DNA from: Thermoproteota archaeon
GTDB taxonomy: Archaea; Korarchaeota; Korarchaeia; Korarchaeales; JAOZGB01
Direction: 5' to 3'
DNA length: 64,000 nucleotides
Assembly: GCA_037917685.1 (NCBI GenBank)
Contig: JAVCBU010000003.1
Location: 1,941 to 65,940 of the forward strand
The translations under genes and the position numbers were made by a program. Below are positions 6,783-20,878 of the stretch, piece after piece. Below the pieces are notes generated by a model, which saw only the letters and a program-made list of their open reading frames with translations, had not been told where the DNA came from and did not search any database. Numbering within the stretch: the stretch's first letter is position 1; each line of letters starts with the position of its first letter.

Positions 6783-6871
6783 GCCCCGGTGGCGTAGTCT
6801 GGTAGCGCGGCCGCCTCGTATCCCGGTGGCTGGTGAGCGGCAGGTCGAGGGTTCGAAGCCCTCCCGGGGCT
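6783..6871 (+). tRNA. tRNA-Thr (anticodon CGU) with a 15-nt intron at the canonical 37/38 position
   Basis: Hand-folded cloverleaf. Acceptor GCCCCGG/CCGGGGC. D arm GCGU-AGUCUGGUA-GCGC. Anticodon stem GCCGC/GCGGC with loop CU-CGU-A, then the intron UCCCGGUGGCUGGUG (6821-6835), then A. T arm GAGGG-UUCGAAG-CCCUC. Discriminator U. The anticodon is at 6817-6819. Confidence 0.85.
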
Positions 6872-6878
6872 TTCCAAG

Positions 6879-7721
6879 CTATTGCGTGGCCGAGGGGTGC
6901 CACCATTTTTTACCTTTCTGCTCTTTGGCCTTGTCCCACTCTGAGAGTATTTTAACTGCTTCGCATGCTGTTTTTGCGGCTTCTTCCTCCCCCTTTACTG
7001 CGAACTTGTTTCTTACTCTGTCTGCGTATACCGCGCATATTGCCCCGGCTCTTAGGCCGTATAGGGATGCTAGGGTTAGTATTGATGCTGCCTCCATTTC
7101 GAAGTTTAGTACTCTCGCCCTCTGAAGATCTGGTATGAGATTGTCCATCCAGGACTGCCAGTACCCATTGTAGCCTGGCCTTGCCTGCCCGCAGTAGAAG
7201 GAGTCTGTGGTTGCGGTTATCCCCACGTGATACCTATATCCTAGGGTTTCAGCTGCTTCTACGAGTGCTGCTACCACCTCGTAGGATGCTACCGCTGGGT
7301 ATTCTATTCTGACATACTGCTTGGTGGTTCCCTCCAGCCTTACGGCTCCTGTTGTTATTATCAGGTCTCCGAGCCTGATATCAGGCTGGATTGACCCGGT
7401 GCTTCCCACTCTTATCAGGGTGTCTGCTCCTATGTTTGCAAGTTCCTCTACAGCTATGGCTGCTGCTGGCGAGCCTATGCCGGTGCTGCAGGCCGATATC
7501 CTAACCCCTCTATAGTAGCCCGTGTGGGTTAGATACTCCCGGTGCCTCCCTACAACCTTGTAGCTGTCCCAGAGTGAGGATATTTTAGGAACCCTGTCCG
7601 GGTCTCCGGGGAGTAGTACATACCTGGATACATCGCCGGGTTTAAGAGCTATATGATACTGTATTCTCCCCCTAGCTTCAGGCCTTATGGCGGACTTGTA
7701 CTCCACGTGGGAACCATGCAT
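6879..7721 (-). CDS. Nucleoside phosphorylase, PNP/UDP family (uridine phosphorylase-like)
   Basis: Motifs LLPGDPDRV, STGIGSPAAAIAVEEL, IRVGSTGS and FEMEAASI. Confidence 0.75.
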   Translation of the reverse strand: MHGSHVEYKSAIRPEARGRIQYHIALKPGDVSRYVLLPGDPDRVPKISSLWDSYKVVGRHREYLTHTGYYRGVRISACSTGIGSPAAAIAVEELANIGADTLIRVGSTGSIQPDIRLGDLIITTGAVRLEGTTKQYVRIEYPAVASYEVVAALVEAAETLGYRYHVGITATTDSFYCGQARPGYNGYWQSWMDNLIPDLQRARVLNFEMEAASILTLASLYGLRAGAICAVYADRVRNKFAVKGEEEAAKTACEAVKILSEWDKAKEQKGKKWWHPSATQ

Positions 7722-7811
7722 ATGAAAGTATTAAGTTTAACTTTTAAGGTGCTTGGTAGAGCCTAACCTTCGCTGGGGCAGACTATGGTACCCTCTACAC
7801 TGTCACCTCGG

Positions 7812-9618: not shown

Positions 9619-10968
9619 GTGGGCATCTTTAAGGCATACGATATCAGAGGGGTATACCCTTCAGAACTCTCAGAGACCATTGCAAAACGTATAGGCATGG
9701 CCTATGGAACCTTCATCAACTCGGGTACAGTCGTAGTTGGGAGGGATGGTAGGGCTAGTAGCCCCAGCCTCCAAAAGGCGATTATAGAGGGTCTTATCGA
9801 AACTGGTTGCCAAGTATTAGATATTGGGCTTATCGCAACACCTGTGTTGTACTATGCGATTAAGAGGCTTAAGGCAGACGGAGGTGTGATGGTTACTGCA
9901 AGCCATAACCCTCCGGAGTGGAATGGGATAAAACTTTGTGATTCAAACTCGGATCTTATAGGGATGGGCTTCGGCCTGGAAAAGGTAGTAGAGATCTATA
10001 ACAAAGGCTCCTACACCAGAAGGCGTGGAAGTATTGAGGATTGTTCGTGGGTTCAAGAGGAATACGTAAGCAACCTTGTCAGAATGTTCAGTCTAGACCT
10101 GAAGGTGGTTATAGATGTCGGTGGAGGCTCAGCTTCATACGTGGCTTCAAGGGTTTACGAAGAGGCGGGGTGCGAGGTTAAACTTATAAACGAGGCTGTA
10201 GATCCATACTTTAGAACAAGATCTCCTGATCCGGACCCGTATGATCTCATGACGTTGAAACTGGCTGTTAAAAACTTCAACGCTGACCTCGGAGTTGCCT
10301 ATGATGGGGACGGAGACAGAGCTGTCTTTGTAGACGAAAATGGTCAGGGATATCTTGGAGACATACCTCTAGCCGTTTATGCATATAGCATCCTGAGGGA
10401 AACGGTTGGTGGAAAAGTGCTTTACGATGTTAGCTGCTCCAAAACAGTTGAAGACACAGTTAGGATGCTGGGAGGAATTCCAGTCATGGTGAGAGTGGGA
10501 CATTCATACATGATGAGGGAGATGGAGAAGCAAAAGGCAGTCCTAGGAGGTGAGATAGCATCCCACTTCTACTTTGGCGACAGCAAGGTTTTCAGCGATG
10601 CTACATACTCAGCTCTAAGGATGCTTACCATAATATCCAAGATAGACAGGCTCTCAAGGATAATAGCGAAGCTGCCAAAGTACTACTCAACACCGCTGAG
10701 ATCGATAATCGTAACCCAAGAGCTTAAGGAACCCATTATGAGGGAAGTAGAAAAGAAGATATCACGGCTGGAAGGAGAAGTAGTGAAGATTGATGGTGTG
10801 AAAGTCCTATTCGAAGATGGATGGATACTTGTAAGGCCTTCGAACACTAAGCCGGAGATAAAATACCGCGTTGAAGCTGTTTCGGAGAAGAAAACGCTAG
10901 AACTCGAAAAGTTAGTGCAAGGGGTCATCCAGGCTGCAGTCTCAAAATATGCCAAGAGAAGGGTCTAA
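9619..10968 (+). CDS. Phosphohexomutase superfamily enzyme (phosphomannomutase/phosphoglucomutase or phosphopentomutase)
   Basis: GTG start. N-terminus FKAYDIRG. Active-site loop TASHNPPEWNGIKL. Metal loop AYDGDGDR. Confidence 0.85.
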   Translation: MGIFKAYDIRGVYPSELSETIAKRIGMAYGTFINSGTVVVGRDGRASSPSLQKAIIEGLIETGCQVLDIGLIATPVLYYAIKRLKADGGVMVTASHNPPEWNGIKLCDSNSDLIGMGFGLEKVVEIYNKGSYTRRRGSIEDCSWVQEEYVSNLVRMFSLDLKVVIDVGGGSASYVASRVYEEAGCEVKLINEAVDPYFRTRSPDPDPYDLMTLKLAVKNFNADLGVAYDGDGDRAVFVDENGQGYLGDIPLAVYAYSILRETVGGKVLYDVSCSKTVEDTVRMLGGIPVMVRVGHSYMMREMEKQKAVLGGEIASHFYFGDSKVFSDATYSALRMLTIISKIDRLSRIIAKLPKYYSTPLRSIIVTQELKEPIMREVEKKISRLEGEVVKIDGVKVLFEDGWILVRPSNTKPEIKYRVEAVSEKKTLELEKLVQGVIQAAVSKYAKRRV

Positions 10969-11023
10969 TCTAAATTTTGAGAAGGCAGGTTCTTACATAT
11001 TATAGACATCAAGTTCGACATGT

Positions 11024-11200
11024 ATGTATGAGGATGGTAGATACTGGGTGGTGATAAACCCGGTGGTCAATATTCCTGGAGACGCGTACTATGGATATAG
11101 TCCTCCGCCAGGTGTTGCGTCGGTCACATTACATAGAATTGTAACTGTTACAGGGTTAGCGTACAACTTTGACTTCATACTTTGGAGTATGACAGACTGA
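11024..11200 (+). pseudogene. Remnant resembling the C-terminal end of the third gene (15236-16570) of the pilin-like operon
   Basis: Its translation ends ...GRYWVVINPVVNIPGDAYYGYSPPPGVASVTLHRIVTVTGLAYNFDFILWSMTD. The intact gene ends ...DWHVYVVPWGIPYLGREWSYGGRPTLFTVAVYYRAVRIGECTYRIKIEFWRTGG. Position and context match the intact locus. Confidence 0.45.
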
Positions 11201-11250
11201 ACTCGGAGGTTTTGCCGTTGGGAGGCCCTATATCTGCTTTGCATCGGGAT

Positions 11251-11442
11251 ATGGGTCAGGTTAGAGCTATAGAGGCTGTAGTTTCCCTCATTATAATCTT
11301 TTCAGCACTCGCTATTATCTCGCTCTACCTATTAACACCTGTCTCTATTGTGACGTTTGAAACAGCAGATCTTGAAAGGCTGGGCTTAACTACTTTACAC
11401 CCGAAGCTTGGGACTATTATAGTCCCTGTGGCAAGCATGTAG
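11251..11442 (+). pseudogene. Remnant of the 5' end of a paralog of the fourth pilin-like operon gene (16574-17857)
   Basis: The remnant reads MGQVRAIEAVVSLIIIFSALAIISLYLLTP...LERLGLTTLH. The intact gene reads MRRHGVVRVTEVLLTITLAISMILLMAYVSPLP...LKNLGMSALRIL. Similarity is lost after about 50 codons. Confidence 0.55.
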
Positions 11443-12000
11443 CGTGCTAAATGCCACAGCTATGACAGCCTGTTGCATAGCATCCCGCCTCTGCATCTGT
11501 GTCCCCAGGGGGAATATCCCCATCTCTTCCATGTATTTTCGTCGAGCATTCACTTTTCCACGTAGAGATTCAAGTGCAAGTCTGACTATACCCTCCTCTG
11601 ATCCTGAGGAGCTTTCGAATTCTACATTGGATGTTGAAGTATAGGCTAACGCTAAGCAGTATATAGCCATACTTCACTTTAATGTCTAGTCCAGTTTTTT
11701 AAACGCTTGAGATAATATGTTCCCAGTGCTGATAGTACTGAAGACCCCATAGAGGTTACTAGGGCTCCATATATTCGAAAGACCTTTGCTTAAGCCTTTA
11801 TGACTCAGATATCGTTGATCTATCGTCGGGCTTTACATCCATGGTCCTATCTAGATCCTGTCCCATATTCTATGGTGGTAGGCAGTTTAAATAAAACTAA
11901 GCTCGGGGAATCATTATTTTCAATGGGTAAGGATGGTTGAGCGCGCACATTGAGCTCCCTATAGACGATTGAGCGATACATTCGGATCATTTTTGACGTG
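11440..12000 (-). pseudogene. Degenerate 3' portion of a paralog of the PNP-like gene at 19937-20878
   Basis: DNA-level similarity: 11600-11700 aligns with 20075-20180 (ggatgttgaag...ggctaacg...agccatact.cacttt), and 11740-11790 aligns with 20235-20290 (ccatagaggtt...ccatatattcgaaagacct.tgcttaagcct). Translation contains TSNVEFESSSGSEEGIVRLALESL, compared with TSEVEFKVSPSSEENMVRLALESL in the intact gene. Frames are broken upstream. Confidence 0.75.
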
Positions 12001-12061
12001 GATCATAGAGAGGGGTTCAATAATTTTAAGTTGAAAGTTAGTGTTTCTATCTGGGAGATTA

Positions 12062-13156
12062 ATGGGGAAGATAACACTTTCTGTTATAAAAGCGGATATA
12101 GGTAGTCTAGCGGGGCATCACATCGTTCCTGAGGCGCTTATCAAGAAAGCAGGAGAAGAGCTTGAGTCAGCCAAGCAGCAAGGCCTCATAAAAGACTACT
12201 ATGTAACATCTGTCGGAGACGACCTTCAGCTGATCATCACCCACGGAAGGGGGGAACTGGACAGCGAGATCCATAGGCTTGCATGGGAAACCTTCAGAGA
12301 GGCTACCGAACTGGCGAGGAAACTCAAGCTTTACGGCGCCGGGCAGGACCTTCTTGTAGACTCGTTCTCCGGGAACCTGAAGGGGATGGGGCCTGGCTTC
12401 GCAGAGTTGGAGTTCGAGGAGAGGCCTTCAGAGCCTGTTGTAGTTTTCATGGCTGACAAGACAAGCCCCGGAGCTTTTAACCTGCCAATATACAGGATCT
12501 TCGCAGACCCATTTAACACGGCAGGGCTTGTCATCGACCCGAAGATGCATACAGGCTTCCAGTTCGAAGTAATGGATGTGAAAGAGGATAAGTCAGTGAT
12601 AATGTCAGCTCCCGAGGAACTATATGACCTGCTAGCCCTGATAGGTGATATTAGTAGATACGTTATAAGAAGGGTATGGAGGAAAGACGGACTTATAGCT
12701 GCAGCCGTAAGCACCACCAAGCTTAGCAAAATAGCGGGGAAGTATGTAGGTAAGGATGACCCCGTAGCCATAGTAAGAGCTCAACACGGCCTACCCGCCC
12801 TTGGAGAAATACTTGAAGCATTCTCGCACCCCCACCTAGTCCCGGGCTGGATGAGAGGCAGCCACTACGGCCCGCTAATGCCTGTTTCAATAAGGGATGC
12901 AAAGCCTACCAGGTTCGATGGGCTGCCAAGGATCTCTGCACTCGGCTTCAACATAGCAGACGGAAGACTTATAGGCCCAAGCGACCTTTTCGACGATGTG
13001 GCATTCGACTTGGCTAGGAATACAGCCAGCCTGATAGCAGACTACCTCAGAAGACACGGCCCATTCATGCCGCATAGGATCGAATCCCAGGAAATGGAGT
13101 ATACCACGTTGCCTCAGATACTTGAGAAGCTTAAGGAGAGGTTCAAAGGTGAATAA
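12062..13156 (+). CDS. fbp: Fructose-1,6-bisphosphate aldolase/phosphatase (class V FBPase)
   Basis: N-terminus MGKITLSVIKADIGSLAGHH is typical of the archaeal bifunctional FBP aldolase/phosphatase. About 365 aa. GGGAG SD before ATG 12062 (the track ORF starts at 12041). Confidence 0.9.
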   Translation: MGKITLSVIKADIGSLAGHHIVPEALIKKAGEELESAKQQGLIKDYYVTSVGDDLQLIITHGRGELDSEIHRLAWETFREATELARKLKLYGAGQDLLVDSFSGNLKGMGPGFAELEFEERPSEPVVVFMADKTSPGAFNLPIYRIFADPFNTAGLVIDPKMHTGFQFEVMDVKEDKSVIMSAPEELYDLLALIGDISRYVIRRVWRKDGLIAAAVSTTKLSKIAGKYVGKDDPVAIVRAQHGLPALGEILEAFSHPHLVPGWMRGSHYGPLMPVSIRDAKPTRFDGLPRISALGFNIADGRLIGPSDLFDDVAFDLARNTASLIADYLRRHGPFMPHRIESQEMEYTTLPQILEKLKERFKGE

Positions 13157-13825
13157 TTGTATCCCAAGATAATAGTAAATCTTAAAGCGTACAAGGAAGC
13201 CTCGGGAAGGAGGGCGTTAGAAATAGCCAAGGCTGCGGAGAAGGTCTATAGGGAGACGGGGGTCCTGGTTGCGGTGGCTCCCAACATGCTTGACGCAGCC
13301 CTTATAGCCGGAGAAGTTGAAATTCCTGTCTATGTGCAACATTTAGACCCTTATGGGTACGGGGCTCACACTGGTAGCATAGTGGTAGACATGCTCCCCG
13401 ACTACGGGATAAGTGGTAGCATTATAAACCACAGTGAGAGGAAGGTTCCACTTTACCATCTAAGCGCAGTCTTAGAGAGGCTCAGGGATCTAGGGCTTAC
13501 TTCTGTGGCGTGTGCGCAGACACCAGCGGAGGCCCTTGCCGTAGCTTCACTTAAACCCTCCATAGTTGCAGTAGAGCCACCGGAGCTTATAGGTACAGGT
13601 ATATCTGTTTCTAAAGCTAAACCTGAAATAATTGTATCATCGGTGCAGCCTATAGGAGATCACTTCCCCTCAGTTCTCGTCTACTGCGGCGCAGGTATAA
13701 CAACGGCTGAGGATGTCCAGAAAGCCATTGAACTTGGGGCGGATGGAGTTCTTCTAGCGTCGGCTGTTGCTAAGAGTTCAAACCCCTTTGCGAAGCTTAA
13801 GGAGCTTTCCTCATCCTTTATTTAA
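13157..13825 (+). CDS. tpiA: Triosephosphate isomerase (short archaeal type)
   Basis: TTG start directly after the fbp stop. Motifs IVNLKAY, IINHSERK and EPPELIGTG. 222 aa. Confidence 0.8.
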   Translation: MYPKIIVNLKAYKEASGRRALEIAKAAEKVYRETGVLVAVAPNMLDAALIAGEVEIPVYVQHLDPYGYGAHTGSIVVDMLPDYGISGSIINHSERKVPLYHLSAVLERLRDLGLTSVACAQTPAEALAVASLKPSIVAVEPPELIGTGISVSKAKPEIIVSSVQPIGDHFPSVLVYCGAGITTAEDVQKAIELGADGVLLASAVAKSSNPFAKLKELSSSFI

Positions 13826-13956
13826 ACCCCACTATTTCTTATGTTATATACTTGAAAATCTTAATTAAATTTTTCAATCTTTTTGCATTTATGTGATATC
13901 CATTTAGCAGGAATTTTTATAAACTTATAGAAGTTTAGAAGTAGTAGGGGGACCCG

Positions 13957-14745
13957 GTGGCCGGTAAAATTGGGCTTTCAGCGGTGTTATCTACGATAAT
14001 AGTATTTACTATAATCCTGGGGGCTGTAATAACTGTTTCTCTCTACTCAAATATGGTGTTGTTCAGCCAGCAGGGAGAAGGCGAGTTTAAAGCCGCTGAA
14101 TCAACAATGGTGGCCTTCGCCATGAACGTGGAAGATGCGGCATGGAATGTAGGTGCAACCCGGAGCATAGATTTCAACCCTAAATTCGGATATCTCCAAG
14201 TGGTAGAAGACGCATATGAGTACGTAATCACCATTAACGGCAACAACTTCCTACGGGTGGAAACAGACATACCTATGTTTAGGATGCCAATACGCAGGTA
14301 TACCAGGGGTAACCATTACCATTCAACATTATACCCCCTTATGAACAAGAGCTTCATAACGCTAGGAGCCGCAGACCCCACCGTTAGAGTAATAAGCGTT
14401 GAAGAACTCGACTACACCGACACCCTCGACGTTGCCCTGCTACCTAGAGTTAAAATATTAAGGTCTCAGTACGTGACCCCTGAGGGTGTAAAGGAGTCGA
14501 CAAGGGTCATGATAATATCCTTCTACTATGACAGGTCATTTTTACGTGCAAGCTCCAGGTACCTGATTGCGAACTGCACGATTACAAATACATCTATCAT
14601 TTCCGGGGACAATATGCAGATTGTCATAAGCGTTCACCCCCTCAACCTCCCTACAGAATATTTAGACTTTGACCCTATGAGTTACTCGTTCCGCACAGAT
14701 ATTCTTGTTGTGCACGTTGCATATGTTAAAATTGTGGTGTGGTAG
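13957..14745 (+). CDS. Pilin-like extracellular protein, operon gene 1 of 5 (class III signal-peptide-type N-terminus)
   Basis: GTG start preceded by GGGGG. MAGKIG/LSAVLSTIIVFTIILGAVITV has a K at -3 and G at -1, followed by a ~20-aa hydrophobic helix. Sequons NKS, NCT and NTS. I recognise no other domain. Confidence 0.55.
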   Translation: MAGKIGLSAVLSTIIVFTIILGAVITVSLYSNMVLFSQQGEGEFKAAESTMVAFAMNVEDAAWNVGATRSIDFNPKFGYLQVVEDAYEYVITINGNNFLRVETDIPMFRMPIRRYTRGNHYHSTLYPLMNKSFITLGAADPTVRVISVEELDYTDTLDVALLPRVKILRSQYVTPEGVKESTRVMIISFYYDRSFLRASSRYLIANCTITNTSIISGDNMQIVISVHPLNLPTEYLDFDPMSYSFRTDILVVHVAYVKIVVW

Positions 14746-14747
14746 CC

Positions 14748-15233
14748 ATGCCATATGTCGCCGTGTCCCAAGTCATATTGACTACAACCCTGATAGGTGT
14801 GTCCCTCTTCTTCGTGTATATGGCTTTCGCCACCTCAACTTTCCACCAGAATATAATAATCCGGGAGAGAATCAAAGATATAGCTTTTTTGATAGCGAAT
14901 GAGGTTTACCAGACAATTGTTATTGCCCAGAGCCCTGATCTTAAGAATGATACGGTGATGATCAAGGTTTTACTGTCCCCGCCGAAAACGGTTGGCAGAT
15001 ACACATATATGATAAACCTTGAACAGGTAAGCCAGCCTACGAGGGCTATAAGGGTGAGTGTAGAGTGTATAGGTGCTTCTCTAAGAGGAGAAAGCATGTT
15101 TCCCATAGGCAGGCACGTCGTCCTGTTGAGCGGGGGGCCTGTGCAAAGCACCCAGAACATAAGGCTCATCTGTCACCGGGTCACCCTGCCAAACAATACA
15201 AGGATAATCTATGTAAGTATAGAGGGTGAATAG
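14748..15233 (+). CDS. Small extracellular/membrane protein with an N-terminal hydrophobic helix, operon gene 2 of 5
   Basis: MPYVAVSQVILTTTLIGVSLFFVYMAF. An alternative GTG start at 14739 overlaps the gene 1 stop. The N-terminus is less canonical because it lacks a basic n-region. Confidence 0.45.
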   Translation: MPYVAVSQVILTTTLIGVSLFFVYMAFATSTFHQNIIIRERIKDIAFLIANEVYQTIVIAQSPDLKNDTVMIKVLLSPPKTVGRYTYMINLEQVSQPTRAIRVSVECIGASLRGESMFPIGRHVVLLSGGPVQSTQNIRLICHRVTLPNNTRIIYVSIEGE

Positions 15234-15235
15234 GG

Positions 15236-16570
15236 ATGCCTTCATCAGCGATAGACTACGTAATGTCAACCTTGGGCTTCATATCTATATTCGTGCTTCT
15301 CTCAGGCGCTGCCTTAACATTGATGCTTAGATCCATAAACTATGCTGAGAGCATGGTTTTCTTCGAGAGAACCAACCTTGTAGTAGACCAGTTTATTCTC
15401 TCCTACGGGGAGCCTTTAGACTGGTATAAACCATCCTCTACCCCGAATATCCCATGGCCTCCAGGCCACTGGGTGCTACCCACGTCGAACCCGTCTCCTC
15501 CCCCGCTTTTATACGTTGGGTATGAGTACCCCGAGGCATTTGGCCTCGGTAGATTTAACAAGACATCCTATATCCTAAACCCGTTTAAGGTTTGCAGGCT
15601 TCAAAAACCGAAAAACGTAACTCTGTATGGTCAAACTGTTCAAGCCTTTGAGGTTGACCCCTCTCATCCTTCCAATCCCCAGAACGAGTTTTATATTATT
15701 GTTGGTGAAAACTACCATGTTCCATACTCATATGTAATCTCCAACCTTGGGCTTGAAAGCGAGTATGGCTTCAGGTTAACCTTTACCCCAATATTAAATG
15801 CGTCCCTCTTACAGACAAGGATAAGTGGCAACTTCATAAACTTTACAATATATGTTTCGTCAATGGGTGAGCCTGTCTACCATGCTAAGATAAGAGGCCT
15901 GCTTCTATACGCAAACAAGCAGCCGGGGGATCAATACCCCACCCCCACTTCAGGGTATGCCAGGGCTTACACTTCTATCGAGGGGATTGGGCAGCTTTCA
16001 TTTAATGTAGACGTTGGACTCTACCCCTGGGTTTTATTCATATCCGTCTCAATGTTCGACACCACCAACTATTTTGTTTACACAGCAGATGACCCCCAAC
16101 TATCCCTGATCTACGTCTCTCCCCTTGGGGAATGTATAATCGTGTATCCATATCCACTAAGGGTTGAGTCGTACACGTTACTCAACGTTACAGCTTGGCA
16201 GCTTATTCTTTCAAAGGAGTCTCCAATGGGGTTCATCCCTGTAAACCTGACCGAAACACCGATAAAATTTATAGAAGTTGTACCACCAGGCGATAGAATA
16301 CTCAGCAAGTACGCAAGAATAAATCTTTCAGAGCCATGGGAGCAATCCTTTATTCTACTCGGCGTACTTACTGAGACTACCCTGCCAGATGACACTAAAA
16401 TCTACGACTGGCATGTTTACGTGGTTCCATGGGGAATCCCTTATCTTGGAAGGGAATGGTCCTACGGTGGGCGTCCCACACTTTTCACTGTCGCTGTCTA
16501 CTACAGAGCCGTAAGGATCGGTGAATGCACATATAGGATTAAAATAGAATTTTGGAGGACTGGTGGTTGA
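15236..16570 (+). CDS. Pilin-like/anchored extracellular glycoprotein, operon gene 3 of 5
   Basis: GAGGGTGA SD. The start is 2 nt after the gene 2 stop. N-terminus MPSSAIDYVMSTLGFISIFVLLSGAALTLML. Sequons NKT, NVT, NAS, NFT, NLT and NLS. Confidence 0.5.
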   Translation: MPSSAIDYVMSTLGFISIFVLLSGAALTLMLRSINYAESMVFFERTNLVVDQFILSYGEPLDWYKPSSTPNIPWPPGHWVLPTSNPSPPPLLYVGYEYPEAFGLGRFNKTSYILNPFKVCRLQKPKNVTLYGQTVQAFEVDPSHPSNPQNEFYIIVGENYHVPYSYVISNLGLESEYGFRLTFTPILNASLLQTRISGNFINFTIYVSSMGEPVYHAKIRGLLLYANKQPGDQYPTPTSGYARAYTSIEGIGQLSFNVDVGLYPWVLFISVSMFDTTNYFVYTADDPQLSLIYVSPLGECIIVYPYPLRVESYTLLNVTAWQLILSKESPMGFIPVNLTETPIKFIEVVPPGDRILSKYARINLSEPWEQSFILLGVLTETTLPDDTKIYDWHVYVVPWGIPYLGREWSYGGRPTLFTVAVYYRAVRIGECTYRIKIEFWRTGG

Positions 16571-16573
16571 AAA

Positions 16574-17857
16574 ATGCGGAGACACGGGGTTGTACGTGTA
16601 ACGGAAGTTCTCCTTACAATCACCCTTGCAATTTCCATGATCCTCTTAATGGCTTATGTCTCCCCCCTTCCAGAGTCGAGACTGTACTCATCACCCCCCT
16701 TAAAGAATCTTGGAATGAGCGCTCTCAGAATACTTGATGAAAGGGGATACCTCAGCTACTTCGTGTACGAGGAGAGATGGGACCTGCTTGAGAAAGAGCT
16801 AAACCTGTTAATACCGCCCAACATAGCATACAACCTTACAGTCTACATGTACAGTGAGAAAGCTTTCGAATCCACCCCGCAGGGCGTCACAAAGGCTGAA
16901 AACCTGATCTTAACAGTTAAGGGCTCAGCATCCAACTATGAGAAGCCACCCCGGAGATGGGCCGAAACAGTAACCTACTATCTTTCACCGAAGAATATAT
17001 CGTTCAAAGTTCTACCAGAACCTATAAACATGACCTGCTACATAATAGCATGCCAAGATGCTCCCGGATGGTGGATAACAGGATATACACCGGCTACGAT
17101 GGCCCAATCCCTCTACCAATATTTAGAACCATACTTCAAGGAAGTAGTAATTATAACGTCAACAGATATGCTCTACGAGGAACTATTCAACCCTAGACCT
17201 AAAAACGTCACCATTGTGAACTGCCACGGAGAAGTTATTCCAATTCCAAGACAATATGTTTCAGGCGCCCCACCTAATGGAAATCCACAGTGGATTAAAT
17301 ATTTAAGGCATATCCGTGAGGGGATAATCCAGGACGGCTGGATATGGGTAAGTATAGTTGGTTACCCATTCTACTATGTTTCTAACCGTGCGTATACCTC
17401 GTGGAAAGCTTGGGGTGTAACTGGACTTTACTGTATAGCTTGTAAAGGATTGTCCACAATAATCAGGGATAACCCTAACGATGGGACTTGGAGATGTAAA
17501 GACATAGGACTTGTCTATCTTACCGAAGAAGGATTCGAAGTCATGAACACCTATGGGATCCAGATTCCTCCGTACCAGAGTAGCTCAAGAGCACTAAGCA
17601 GGTCATGGGTTGAAGCTGGAGGGTGGAAAGTCGATATTCAAATATTCTACGAAGAACAGGGATACCTACCAGTTTCAGTGTTAATAAATGGTAAAGGAGC
17701 CTTCATACAAGTCGGACTCACTAGAACTCCCGACATAAGGGTTTCGGTTATCGCATTACTCTCATATCTCCGGCCTTCACTAAACGAATTGCTGGAGAAA
17801 GCAATCGTAGGATTGAGAGTGCTAGTGCTTAAGATGGCCTATATAGGAGGTGGGTAA
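16574..17857 (+). CDS. Pilin-like extracellular protein, operon gene 4 of 5
   Basis: MRRHG/VVRVTEVLLTITLAISMILLMAYV has a basic n-region, a Gly, then a hydrophobic helix with an early Glu. The start is 3 nt after the gene 3 stop. Sequons NLT, NIS, NMT and NVT. Confidence 0.55.
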   Translation: MRRHGVVRVTEVLLTITLAISMILLMAYVSPLPESRLYSSPPLKNLGMSALRILDERGYLSYFVYEERWDLLEKELNLLIPPNIAYNLTVYMYSEKAFESTPQGVTKAENLILTVKGSASNYEKPPRRWAETVTYYLSPKNISFKVLPEPINMTCYIIACQDAPGWWITGYTPATMAQSLYQYLEPYFKEVVIITSTDMLYEELFNPRPKNVTIVNCHGEVIPIPRQYVSGAPPNGNPQWIKYLRHIREGIIQDGWIWVSIVGYPFYYVSNRAYTSWKAWGVTGLYCIACKGLSTIIRDNPNDGTWRCKDIGLVYLTEEGFEVMNTYGIQIPPYQSSSRALSRSWVEAGGWKVDIQIFYEEQGYLPVSVLINGKGAFIQVGLTRTPDIRVSVIALLSYLRPSLNELLEKAIVGLRVLVLKMAYIGGG

Positions 17858-17858
17858 A

Positions 17859-19925
17859 ATGGCTAAGCGTAAAGGGCGGCGTGTTAAGGGGCAAACCTAC
17901 ATATTTACGGTTCTCCTCGTTTCACTAATATTCATATCATCACTCCTAATACTCAGAAGCCAAATCCTTGAGATAGTACCCAAAGCCACATACAGCCACA
18001 TCCCAATCGTAGACACCGTTAAAAACTCCCTGGAGAGGGCTGTCTCAGCATCCCTCGCCACCTATTCGGAGCTCCTCTGGTACTCGGGGAACGGAACATT
18101 CTCCAGGGAGAGAGCAATTCAGTACATGGAGGACTGCTTCGACACCATCTTTTCATCACTGACATCTTACGGGGTTGAATTTGCGTATTTCAGCGATGAA
18201 GTTATTATTGATCCCAGGCTGCCACGGAGACGTATATCTGAAGGAGAAGTTTTCAAGGCATACTGGTATCACCCTACAAGTGTAACCGCGGCGGCGATCA
18301 GGTTCAACTTTAACCTGACAACCATAGGCCTTTACAACTATGCTTTCAACGTTTTCGGACAAGCCTTCTACATGTTAAAGGTTGAGATCATAAGGTCCGG
18401 TATGGGTAAGCTTCGCCTTAAAGTTTTAAGGGAAGGAAACACACCTGTTCTCGGGCTGAACGAGAAGAACTTTAGAATATGGTACTTCGACGAAAGCAAG
18501 AGAATGTGGGTTGAAGGAACGGTAAGAATAGAGAACGTTTTCTCAGATGGAAGATACTACCTTAGGCATACCATTCTAGGTCCGAAGCTCGAAGACGGAA
18601 CAGTCCCCCTCCTGGTTATGGTTGAAGATATCAGGGGTATAAAGGTGGTTGCATTCTCCGTTAGAGGCTATGAATATTCAATACAACACTCTCAAACAGG
18701 ATCCCATGCCATCTACTCCGTAGAGGTCTTCAACGATGGAAAGTGGTACTTCATAGGGAGCGAAATAGCTTTTGAGGGTAGCGCAGAGCCGATGCCCCTG
18801 CCCCCCATACCAGGAAGACTTCTAAGAATAAACACCACAGATGGGAAGCCAATACCATTCCAGATAGAGGACTGGAGCTCCAACAACCTGTTCCCACTTG
18901 GGATAGCAAACCCTCACAACCACATAAACTACTACAATAGAATATGCTTCCCACTAAACTCAACAGTCTCAGGCGTTGATATTTGGTGGGTCGATGACAT
19001 GGACGCTGATCCACCCAGCTTTGTTACCGACCTCCACTGCATAGAGCAATCTCCAAACTCAAAATATTGGAACAGCAACTACTGGGCGCAAATAGTAGGA
19101 ACTGGGAGTTGGAGCGGGTGCACCCTTAACCCATTCCAGCTTAGACTTGCTAGAACCTCGTCAAGCAGCACCTACGAATATATAGAGTTCGCCAGAGCGA
19201 ATTACAAGGAAGCAGCAGCATGGGGATCCTATACTGATACAATAGTTGAAAACACCGCTAGGAATATGTTTCTAGTTGAATTAGAGTACCCGTATAGCAA
19301 CTGTCCCCCGCCCTACAATATACATGGAATACCAAACTCGCCAGATACCTACGTGCTCGTGATAGTTACGTTCCCAGCCTACACAAAATACATAACCTTC
19401 ACAGTTCACCTCATCCTTGACAGGGTAACCGAAAAGACGATTAGCGACTTTAGAGTAATATACCTCAAAACAGGATTCAAGAAGTTCGCGGCGGAGAATG
19501 GAACTCAAATAGTTACCAGGCTCCCGTCAGGCGAGAACTATGCTAAATTCTACAACGGATCTAGCAGCGGGGGAGGGGATCATAACTGGATAGTCCACTA
19601 CCATGAAAGGAAGAACCTTGGAATAGCACTAATGCTTACCGAGCAAAATCTGCAAGCGTTGTATAGCCAGAGCAATAAGGGTGGAATAGTGGTTGTTAGA
19701 TCTGGTAACAAATATATAATAGAGATGAAGCCTATAGATGGAAGCTACATACCTAAAACATCTCCAATATCATATCCGGCTGAGCCGCAGACGATAACGG
19801 TGATCACATGGTCAGGAATCCTCTGGGTGTACAATGGCAACGGGTATGGAGAGATAAACAACTATTCATTCATGGTTGAGAACCCTCCAGTAATAACTTC
19901 TGTAACAAGGTATATAGGTTCATAA
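17859..19925 (+). CDS. Large pilin-like extracellular protein, operon gene 5 of 5
   Basis: GGAGGTG SD followed by ATG 17859 (the track ORF starts at 17850). MAKRKGRRVKG/QTYIFTVLLVSLIFISSLLIL is a textbook KG/Q class III signal-peptide-like site. Sequons NGT, NLT, NTT, NST, NGS and NYS. Confidence 0.6.
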   Translation: MAKRKGRRVKGQTYIFTVLLVSLIFISSLLILRSQILEIVPKATYSHIPIVDTVKNSLERAVSASLATYSELLWYSGNGTFSRERAIQYMEDCFDTIFSSLTSYGVEFAYFSDEVIIDPRLPRRRISEGEVFKAYWYHPTSVTAAAIRFNFNLTTIGLYNYAFNVFGQAFYMLKVEIIRSGMGKLRLKVLREGNTPVLGLNEKNFRIWYFDESKRMWVEGTVRIENVFSDGRYYLRHTILGPKLEDGTVPLLVMVEDIRGIKVVAFSVRGYEYSIQHSQTGSHAIYSVEVFNDGKWYFIGSEIAFEGSAEPMPLPPIPGRLLRINTTDGKPIPFQIEDWSSNNLFPLGIANPHNHINYYNRICFPLNSTVSGVDIWWVDDMDADPPSFVTDLHCIEQSPNSKYWNSNYWAQIVGTGSWSGCTLNPFQLRLARTSSSSTYEYIEFARANYKEAAAWGSYTDTIVENTARNMFLVELEYPYSNCPPPYNIHGIPNSPDTYVLVIVTFPAYTKYITFTVHLILDRVTEKTISDFRVIYLKTGFKKFAAENGTQIVTRLPSGENYAKFYNGSSSGGGDHNWIVHYHERKNLGIALMLTEQNLQALYSQSNKGGIVVVRSGNKYIIEMKPIDGSYIPKTSPISYPAEPQTITVITWSGILWVYNGNGYGEINNYSFMVENPPVITSVTRYIGS

Positions 19926-19936
19926 GGCTTCATGGT

Positions 19937-20878
19937 TTAGCATAGCCTGTGGTATAGCATCCAGCCAACTGCCTCGCTATCCAAGGGTTCCACGTCCCTC
20001 CTGCCATCCAGATACTTCTCGTCAAGCATCCTCTTCCTATTGAGAGACTCAAGCGCAAGTCTTACCATGTTTTCCTCCGAGCTGGGTGAGACTTTAAATT
20101 CCACCTCGGATGTTGAAGCGTAGTATGGGCTAACGACAAGTAGTATGCAGCCATACTCCACTTTGACATCCAGCCCTATCCTCCTGAAAGCCTGGGTGTA
20201 ATATGTTGCAAGTGCCGACAACGCCGAAGACTCCATAGAGGTTGCAAGGGCACCCATATATTCGAAAGACCTCTGCTTAAGCCTCTGCAGCTCAGGTATT
20301 GTTGACCTGTTGTTAGGGCTTTCATCAGCATACAGCGCGTCCTTACATATCCCAGGCCCTATCCAAACCCTATCCCTAAATCCATGGTGGTATGCGGTTT
20401 CAATAAGAACGAGACTCATAAGATCGCTATTTACGATCGGGAAGGCCGGGTGGGCGATCTTATGACTCACACCGTCGTCTCTAACAACACCCCTCTCTAT
20501 GACAAGATCGTTGGGCTTAACATGAGGCTGCCAGCTCCCACAGGTTCCAGCCCTGACAACAGAGACTCTTCTAAACCTTTTAAAGTCGATGTTAAGAAGA
20601 ACCTCGGTGAAAACTATCTCGGCTGAGGAAGGCCCGATTCCCGTGGTAAAAACAGTTATAGGGGTATCCCTGTAGTAACCGTTCACCACTAGAAGGCCTC
20701 TCCTTCTACTTGCGATTCTAGCATCACTAAGCATCCCTCTAGCCATCTCTACACGTTCAGGGCTTCCACAAGTAAGTAGATAACCATTTAGCTCCCCTCT
20801 CCTGGCTCTTACATGATATGAGTATCCCTCAGGATCCCTGAAAACGTCGTATCGATTATAAAACTCTTCAAGGGGCAT
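19937..20878 (-). CDS. PNP/UDP-family nucleoside phosphorylase-like protein with a C-terminal extension
   Basis: Motifs TCGSPERVEMA, FTTGIGPSSAEIVFTEVL, VRAGTCGS and TSMESSAL. Confidence 0.65.
   Translation of the reverse strand: MPLEEFYNRYDVFRDPEGYSYHVRARRGELNGYLLTCGSPERVEMARGMLSDARIASRRRGLLVVNGYYRDTPITVFTTGIGPSSAEIVFTEVLLNIDFKRFRRVSVVRAGTCGSWQPHVKPNDLVIERGVVRDDGVSHKIAHPAFPIVNSDLMSLVLIETAYHHGFRDRVWIGPGICKDALYADESPNNRSTIPELQRLKQRSFEYMGALATSMESSALSALATYYTQAFRRIGLDVKVEYGCILLVVSPYYASTSEVEFKVSPSSEENMVRLALESLNRKRMLDEKYLDGRRDVEPLDSEAVGWMLYHRLC

Follow-up and report, generated by a model that had tools for sequence, protein, structure and literature searches.

Probable mosaic gene debris between a phosphomutase gene and fbp in a Thermoproteota archaeon: a PNP-like pseudogene fragment and candidate remnants of a divergent pilin-like gene set

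Between a phosphoglucosamine/phosphomannomutase gene (9619-10968) and fbp, a 64,000-nucleotide stretch of contig JAVCBU010000003.1 from a Thermoproteota archaeon, hereafter called the window, carries a spacer of 1072 nt. This spacer is probably non-functional, mosaic debris of a second arrangement in which a divergent pilin-like gene set was accompanied by a PNP-like gene. An intact arrangement of this type is resident in the same window and comprises five consecutive genes, g1-g5 (13957-19925), followed by a convergent gene of the PNP_UDP_1 family (19937-20878, minus strand; Pfam PF01048, E=3e-21). The latter was the reference copy for the pseudogene described below, and the junction (16570/16574) between resident g3 and g4 (15236-17857, plus strand) was the reference for the remnants of the set. 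One component of the debris would be the stop/start junction between genes 3 and 4 of a second, deeply divergent five-gene set, and the other a truncated and frameshifted 3' fragment of a second PNP-like copy, convergent as at the intact locus. A first-pass annotation of this DNA had described three remnants in the spacer and attributed them to a duplication of the whole locus as one unit, one copy of which is eroding. All three remnants are real, yet they are unlike in strength and in age, and what the spacer displays is genome erosion of an ordinary kind rather than a recently made copy of the operon nearby.

Gene remnants within the spacer

The right-hand part of the spacer, positions 11467-11943 on the minus strand, is an unambiguous pseudogene fragment of a PNP/uridine-phosphorylase-like gene and corresponds to nucleotides 423-935 of a coding sequence (CDS) of 942. 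When 10969-12040 was compared by blastn with the whole window, the single significant non-self match was the resident PNP-like gene: 11467-11839 aligns with 19944-20326 at 70.6% identity over 385 nt (E=7e-39), and the similarity continues from 11843-11943 to 20355-20456 at 69.6%. The Smith-Waterman (SW) score lies about 97 standard units above that of shuffled sequences (z ~97). In a single alignment with the resident CDS, 343 of 514 columns are identical, and the fragment shows in-frame stops and ten indels, nine of them frameshifting (six deletions of 1 nt, one of 2 nt, one of 5 nt and one in-frame deletion of 24 nt, together with one insertion of 1 nt). Its translation therefore requires all three frames and meets stops. 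The fragment represents the last 55% of the gene, the 5' 422 nt (the N-terminal 141 codons) being absent, and no similarity extends past the 3' end of the gene into g5-like sequence. The conceptual translation shares 60% of its residues with the resident protein (E=8e-61) and shows no relationship to the other PNP paralog of the window (near 6785-7738). By homology the fragment falls within PF01048, yet it lacks the complete uninterrupted frame of a member gene. The minus-strand remnant of the 3' part of the PNP-like gene proposed in the first-pass annotation is thus strongly confirmed, its length being 477 nt and not the ~560 nt estimated there. A reconstructed protein used as a database query returned the window's own 91-amino-acid open reading frame (ORF) alone and missed even the resident PNP-like protein, so that this search is uninformative on a closer donor.

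To the left of this fragment, two short frames lie 50 nt apart on the plus strand: ORF-A (11024-11200; 58 aa) and ORF-B (11251-11442, with its ATG at 11251; 63 aa). They had been described as remnants of the C-terminal end of resident gene 3 and of the start of resident gene 4. Such a direct relationship to the resident genes is not found. At the DNA level, 10969-11466 is no more similar to the resident g3/g4 junction region (16200-16900) than shuffled controls are (z=-0.9), nor does it stand out against the whole operon (z=1.3), so that for these two remnants the proposed similarity to the resident genes does not pass the shuffled-control check set in the first-pass annotation. The same holds for the proteins, with z=-0.4 for ORF-A against resident g3 and z=2.35 for ORF-B against resident g4, a score reached by 30 of 1000 shuffles.

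Homology to the two gene families is nevertheless detectable with profiles. Profiles of g1-g5 were built from the neighbours of g4 relatives in 80 metagenomic loci and in L083-L085, the window's own proteins being left out, and were searched against all 49 six-frame pieces of the spacer. ORF-B matches positions 2-47 of the 434-position g4 profile (12.7 bits, E=9e-5; aligned part 11260-11400) and ORF-A matches positions 364-400 of the 406-position g3 profile (10.9 bits, E=4e-4; aligned part 11084-11194). These are the two best matches of any profile in the spacer, and among the 1344 six-frame pieces of the 64-kb window the two frames are surpassed by the five resident genes alone. In 2000 shuffles per frame, neither score was reached (maxima 5.2 and 5.8 bits), and the reversed sequences scored below 0.5 bits. 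ORF-A accordingly represents the C-terminal ~40-60 codons of a gene-3-family gene with its stop, and ORF-B the beginning of a gene-4-family gene, from its start codon through ~50 codons, in the gene order expected.

Conserved residues point in the same direction. The gene-4 family is characterized at its N-terminus by R-x-x-E (E11 invariant, R8 nearly so, at >=90%), a hydrophobic helix and L-x-x-L-[AG]-L-T-T-L, and ORF-B retains the R..E pair, the helix and L.RL.LTTL. The globular domain that follows in intact members, with its invariant GWWITGYT and NWxWxSIVGYP, left no further g4 profile match in any frame of 10969-12040. ORF-A has the G ... R-x-V ... Y ... W block that marks the gene-3 C-terminus, with a stop a few residues past the W; the remaining ~360 residues of gene 3 have no profile match in any frame upstream of 11084, where the phosphomutase gene ends at 10968. 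Additionally, ORF-A aligns end-to-end with the C-terminus of gene 3 from a second, miniaturised set in the related locus L084 (SW score 53, z=5.6, 0 of 500 shuffles), and ORF-B is 35-41% identical over 46 aa to mainstream Bathyarchaeia g4 N-termini (30-32 bits), as compared with 27% and 17 bits for resident g4. On this evidence ORF-A and ORF-B are true homologues of the gene-3 and gene-4 families and not copies of the resident genes. Their subtype is less clear-cut: the scores favour mainstream Bathyarchaeia genes, whereas the 'G-Q-[VI]-R' start and the shortness of the C-terminal tail are reminiscent of the L084 mini set and of the clade to which the window belongs.

Public assemblies annotate three small genes in this region, at 11024-11200 (plus strand, 58 aa), 11218-11442 (plus strand, 74 aa) and 11395-11670 (minus strand, 91 aa). 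They are most likely spurious calls on pseudogene debris, and flagging them is the main practical value of the present analysis.

Insert boundaries and the unequal divergence of the two halves

The closest relative, L083, follows the window collinearly, its DNA being about 79-85% identical. Between phosphomutase and fbp it has a spacer of only 132 bp, with no insert, so that the comparison with a related genome revealed no intact second operon at this position. Synteny is broken at window 10950/12016 (L083 5345/5452), which delimits a lineage-specific stretch of 1065 nt (10951-12015) as against 106 nt in L083, and no similarity was found between the L083 spacer and the insert. The left break falls in the last 5-6 codons of the phosphomutase gene, where the two proteins diverge after ...SKY (window) or ...SEY (L083), ending in ...SKYAKRRV* and ...SEYKGGMSA*, respectively (window 10951-10968). 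As these last codons are wholly unlike those of L083, the left edge of the insert must have rewritten the C-terminus of the protein. On the right, 72 nt of unattributed filler (11944-12015) separate the truncated PNP fragment from the conserved fbp upstream region; this filler resembles neither nucleotides 1-430 of the PNP-like CDS (386 of 1000 shuffles reach the score) nor the L083 spacer, and from ~12016 onwards the sequence is again conserved in L083. Positions 11401-11466, which link the gene-4-like remnant to the PNP fragment, form a presumed deletion or recombination breakpoint, with no similarity to the gene-5 3' end or spacer of the resident locus or of L083 (score 8, shuffle mean 7.6).

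No clear signature of mobility was found at these boundaries: the spacer holds no transposase or integrase ORF, and the sole direct-repeat candidate at the flanks (10954-10980 and 12006-12029) is imperfect and weak (20 of 24 matches, p~0.04). Structured RNA was not found either, ARAGORN placing no tRNA in the spacer and Rfam giving no match at E<=1 across 10500-12500. In composition the insert does not stand out (41-47% GC). The spacer is not an assembly artefact, since contigs from two independent sequencing runs are 99.995-100% identical to the window across this region. In run SRR24907187 the assembly breaks within the PNP fragment, where two contigs share only 30 nt (window 11823-11852); this break may reflect a strain variant at the spacer.

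The age of the PNP fragment was estimated from a three-way alignment of 476 columns, in which it is 70.2% identical to the window's PNP-like gene and 69.3% identical to that of L083, the identity between these two intact genes being 77.5%. The informative sites divide 44 to 40 between the two (binomial p=0.74). Jukes-Cantor branches at third positions measure 0.37 for the window gene, 0.34 for L083 and 0.41 for the fragment, whose excess over the functional branches is 0.06 (CI -0.17 to +0.28). Given this equidistance and the similar third-position branches, the fragment would have separated from the resident gene at about the time of the window/L083 split. Changes specific to the fragment number 27, 21 and 31 at positions 1, 2 and 3, as compared with 8, 3 and 29 and with 10, 7 and 27 in the functional copies, and the corrected ratio of position 1+2 to position 3 branches is 0.47 (95% CI 0.29-0.83) against 0.16. 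This ratio suggests that the copy was functional, or at least under selection, for part of its separate history and decayed thereafter. The L083 orthologue of the resident gene evolves under purifying selection (distance 0.116 at positions 1+2 and 0.71 at position 3).

The left half does not fit the same age. The window and L083 share 77-80% identity across the resident g3/g4 junction, which thus evolves no faster than the PNP-like gene; a copy of it as old as the PNP fragment is therefore expected to be about 70% identical to the resident junction. Junction copies simulated at the divergence of the PNP fragment (d=0.38 substitutions per site, with indels) had a median SW score of 126 and never scored less than 83, as compared with 10 for the actual sequence. 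Similarity this faint requires a divergence of at least about 0.8-1.0 substitutions per site. Measured against its resident counterpart, the left half thus shows no less than twice the divergence of the PNP fragment, and this contrast points to a deeply divergent paralog or xenolog as the source of the former and to a fairly close PNP-like relative as the source of the latter.

In several respects the spacer resembles the pseudogenes and gene remnants of other prokaryotic spacers: a truncated, frameshifted copy has an intact gene nearby, substitutions are spread over all codon positions and the debris is absent from the sister genome. It departs from them in being a mosaic of two pieces of different divergence, and in the PNP fragment seemingly having been under selection for part of its separate history.

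Competing accounts of the debris

According to the explanation that we favour, a second pilin-like set with its PNP-like gene once stood at this site, either as an old paralogous locus or as DNA acquired from a related lineage. It would have been reduced by at least three deletions, to which all sequence before the gene-3 end, most of gene 4 and the sequence beyond it, and the 5' portion of the PNP-like gene were lost; the second arrangement would never have been present in L083, or would have been purged from it. The order and orientation of the debris (gene-3 end, gene-4 start, convergent PNP-like 3' end) match those of the intact locus, as had been noticed in the first-pass annotation. We infer, rather than observe, that the two halves arrived together, and the same applies to the order of the deletions and to the paralogous or foreign nature of the source. 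The internal loss of 3.4 kb proposed earlier presumes genes of resident size and is uncertain, since a g4-type protein can be as short as 170 aa; the figure would fall to ~1.2 kb if the lost set resembled the L084 mini set.

Several observations weigh against this explanation. The gene-3 and gene-4 assignments are based on short matches (37 and 46 residues, 11-13 bits), and neither a donor nor a closer relative of the two frames surfaced: a chimeric query of ORF-A and ORF-B against 5.8 billion proteins and an ORF-B query against 1.84 billion cluster representatives each returned nothing beyond the window's own gene call. In ORF-A and ORF-B the reading frame is intact across the homologous part, as opposed to nine frameshifts in 477 nt in the PNP fragment. 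Decay may thus have lasted longer in one half than in the other, although this hint is weakened by the bias of profile searches towards in-frame sequence. Furthermore, a PNP-like gene lies next to gene 5 in none of 83 other loci with the five-gene set, so that the pairing is known only from the window and L083. Finally, the three-sequence PNP comparison is unrooted, as it includes no outgroup PNP-like sequence.

Some of these points would suit the view that the spacer holds two unrelated scraps, a gene-3/4 junction and a PNP fragment captured independently, for instance as filler when a rearrangement brought fbp-tpiA and the five-gene set to this site. The resemblance to the order of the intact locus would then be a coincidence; the probability that order and orientation agree by chance is only about 1 in 4. 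The halves are unequal in divergence and in breakage, the PNP similarity ends at the 3' end of the gene with unattributed filler on both sides, the five-gene set of this lineage clearly stands at a new place, apart from its ATPase and platform genes, and no PNP-like gene adjoins g5 in the other 83 loci. We nevertheless regard independent capture as unlikely, because two rare fragments, both akin to the adjacent locus and found in matching arrangement within one spacer, are explained less parsimoniously in this way than by one decayed locus, and because no flanking repeat beyond the weak candidate mentioned above, nor any clear mobile-element signature, explains the capture. Distinctly less likely still is a cassette replacement, in which a five-gene filament set of one type, standing beside a PNP-like gene, was displaced by the resident type. 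The resident set would then have arrived together with fbp-tpiA, by recombination anchored in the PNP-like gene. Were this true, filament gene sets of this uncultured archaeal lineage would be exchanged whole at one constant place in the chromosome, in the manner of bacterial surface-antigen cassettes.

A more sceptical account accepts the PNP fragment alone and takes ORF-A and ORF-B for chance frames whose profile matches stem from a hydrophobic helix and from composition. The low bit scores, the non-significant pairwise tests against the resident genes and a weak match of ORF-B to the N-terminal helix of gene 1 (5.8 bits) speak for it. We consider it very unlikely, as composition-preserving shuffles and reversed sequences fall well short of the observed scores, ORF-A is not hydrophobic and matches at the extreme C-terminus including the position of the stop, and the two frames are the best non-self matches in the whole window, adjacent, co-oriented and correctly ordered, ORF-A being further supported by its alignment with the second-set gene 3 of L084. 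Conversely, ORF-B, and perhaps ORF-A, might be a functional small gene, for example for a 63-aa truncated pilin-like protein consisting mostly of the N-terminal helix. The frame of ORF-B is intact from ATG to stop, preserves the R..E motif and the helix, and is called as a gene in public assemblies. Such a mini-gene is highly improbable, however, in view of the two database searches that found no homologue besides its own gene call, its absence from L083, its last ~14 residues, which match nothing, and its position within obvious debris, where it overlaps the spurious 91-aa frame of the PNP fragment.

The original proposal, a single duplication of the present locus (resident g3-g4 through to the PNP-like gene) followed by a 3.4-kb internal deletion and uniform decay, has in its favour the order and orientation of the pieces and the relatedness of the PNP fragment to the resident gene. 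It can hardly be maintained. A segmental duplicate should show comparable divergence in all segments, and here the PNP part lies at d=0.38 while the junction is undetectable; it should share derived states with the window gene or be present in the sister genome, and here the informative sites are evenly split and L083 carries no trace of an insert. The incompatible ages of the two halves contradict it, the more so as a resident-type junction copy of the same age would score far above the value observed and the resident junction is not fast-evolving, and ORF-B lies nearer to distant Bathyarchaeia gene 4 than to resident gene 4. Tandem-duplication and Campbell-type models with resident-type genes were also rejected, since both predict gene-3/4 remnants of the resident type. 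A variant of these models with an older set of a different type might hold, yet under it the PNP fragment would have evolved neutrally from the outset, a poor fit with the ratio of 0.47.

The resident locus and its filament-like gene family

Around the spacer, the genes follow one another in the order PfkB and BtpA (both on the minus strand), phosphomutase, the spacer, fbp (class V FBPase, with its true start at the ATG at 12062), tpiA, g1-g5 and the convergent PNP_UDP_1 gene. The resident PNP-like gene gives only weak matches to the uridine-phosphorylase and DeoD models of NCBIfam, all under the cut-off (93 bits against 280 required for uridine phosphorylase). Both it and the fragment are therefore akin to the PNP_UDP_1 phosphorylases (PF01048; uridine phosphorylase, DeoD-like) by family, yet differ from them, the resident gene in falling far under the cut-offs of the named enzymes and the fragment in its frameshifts and missing N-terminal codons. 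A scan of genome contigs for fbp showed that fbp-tpiA linkage is common and that no five-gene set stands beside fbp elsewhere; the best fbp match in that scan was 71% identical, and no close relative surfaced there.

The protein encoded by g4 (16574-17857) has 1745 database relatives, mostly labelled Bathyarchaeia, the nearest being those of L083 (92% identical), L084 (50%) and L085 (41%). In all 39 related loci with enough upstream sequence, g1-g5 directly follow a T2SSE-type ATPase gene and a T2SSF-type platform gene. Judged from these gene neighbourhoods, the ATPase, the platform protein and g1-g5 appear to form a seven-gene cluster of the type-IV-filament kind, widespread and essentially unannotated. 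In the window (12062-20878) and in L083 (5498-14336), the set is detached from these partners and wedged between fbp-tpiA and the PNP-like gene, and no filament-type ATPase or platform gene occurs in the 64-kb window.

The set belongs to a family with paralogous copies, as had been suspected from the spacer. In L084, g5 is immediately followed by a second, miniaturised tandem set (13408-17197) of unchanged gene order (269, 189, 333, 170 and 292 aa), each member of which matches the corresponding family profile; since this locus holds two tandem sets, the family forms paralogous sets. This agrees with what has been described for archaeal type IV pilus loci, which undergo lineage-specific duplication and horizontal transfer and may encode pilin sets apart from the ATPase (Makarova et al., 2016, PMC4858521); duplicated and diverged archaeal pilin sets, and sets located away from the ATPase, are also reported in a 2026 preprint (10.64898/2026.04.22.720090).

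The products of the five genes begin with a short charged segment and a hydrophobic helix. As in archaeal type IV filament (T4P/TFF) loci, the genes are linked in relatives to T2SSE-type and T2SSF-type genes. Unlike the known components of such loci, genes 2-5 match no Pfam or NCBIfam family, and the globular part of g4 is not pilin-like in a weak structural comparison of predicted models. In the AlphaFold model of g4 (pLDDT 81), a helix at the N-terminus leads into a globular part weakly similar to ThuA, glutamine-amidotransferase-like and GH42 trimerisation domains (Foldseek E ~5e-4, TM 0.27-0.43). As this globular part resembles other domains, g4 is predicted not to adopt a classical pilin fold, and the term 'pilin-like' fits its N-terminus only. 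Membership among type IV pilins is thus putative, and is suggested by the sequence pattern and by the linkage to ATPase and platform genes in relatives.

With regard to evolution, the debris would provide a modest record of a former second, divergent filament gene set and a second PNP-like gene in an uncultured Thermoproteota/Bathyarchaeia-like lineage, and it shows that a rearrangement parted the resident set from its ATPase and platform genes. With regard to mechanism, it raises no new question on how anything works. The more interesting object is the conserved, unannotated seven-gene filament-like cluster around the spacer.

Three further observations concern the surroundings of these genes. 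In ten mainstream Bathyarchaeia loci (L128, L130, L132, L137, L139, L141, L153, L157, L158 and L160), a phosphomutase-family gene 32-38% identical to that of the window lies ~5 kb downstream of g4, and a loose linkage between phosphomutase and the filament cluster may be older than the window lineage. In Thorarchaeota L049, L051, L058, L067, L070 and L075, a PNP-like gene (25-28% identical) is located divergently upstream of fbp, at a distance of 250 bp-1.2 kb. The PNP fragment and fbp of the window are placed and oriented in the same way relative to each other, a match that may be a coincidence. Finally, the sole ARAGORN call in the window, at 6783-6871, is a tRNA of undetermined identity with a four-base anticodon (cgta). 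It may represent an archaeal tRNA with an intron; conservation with L083 is 88% across this region.

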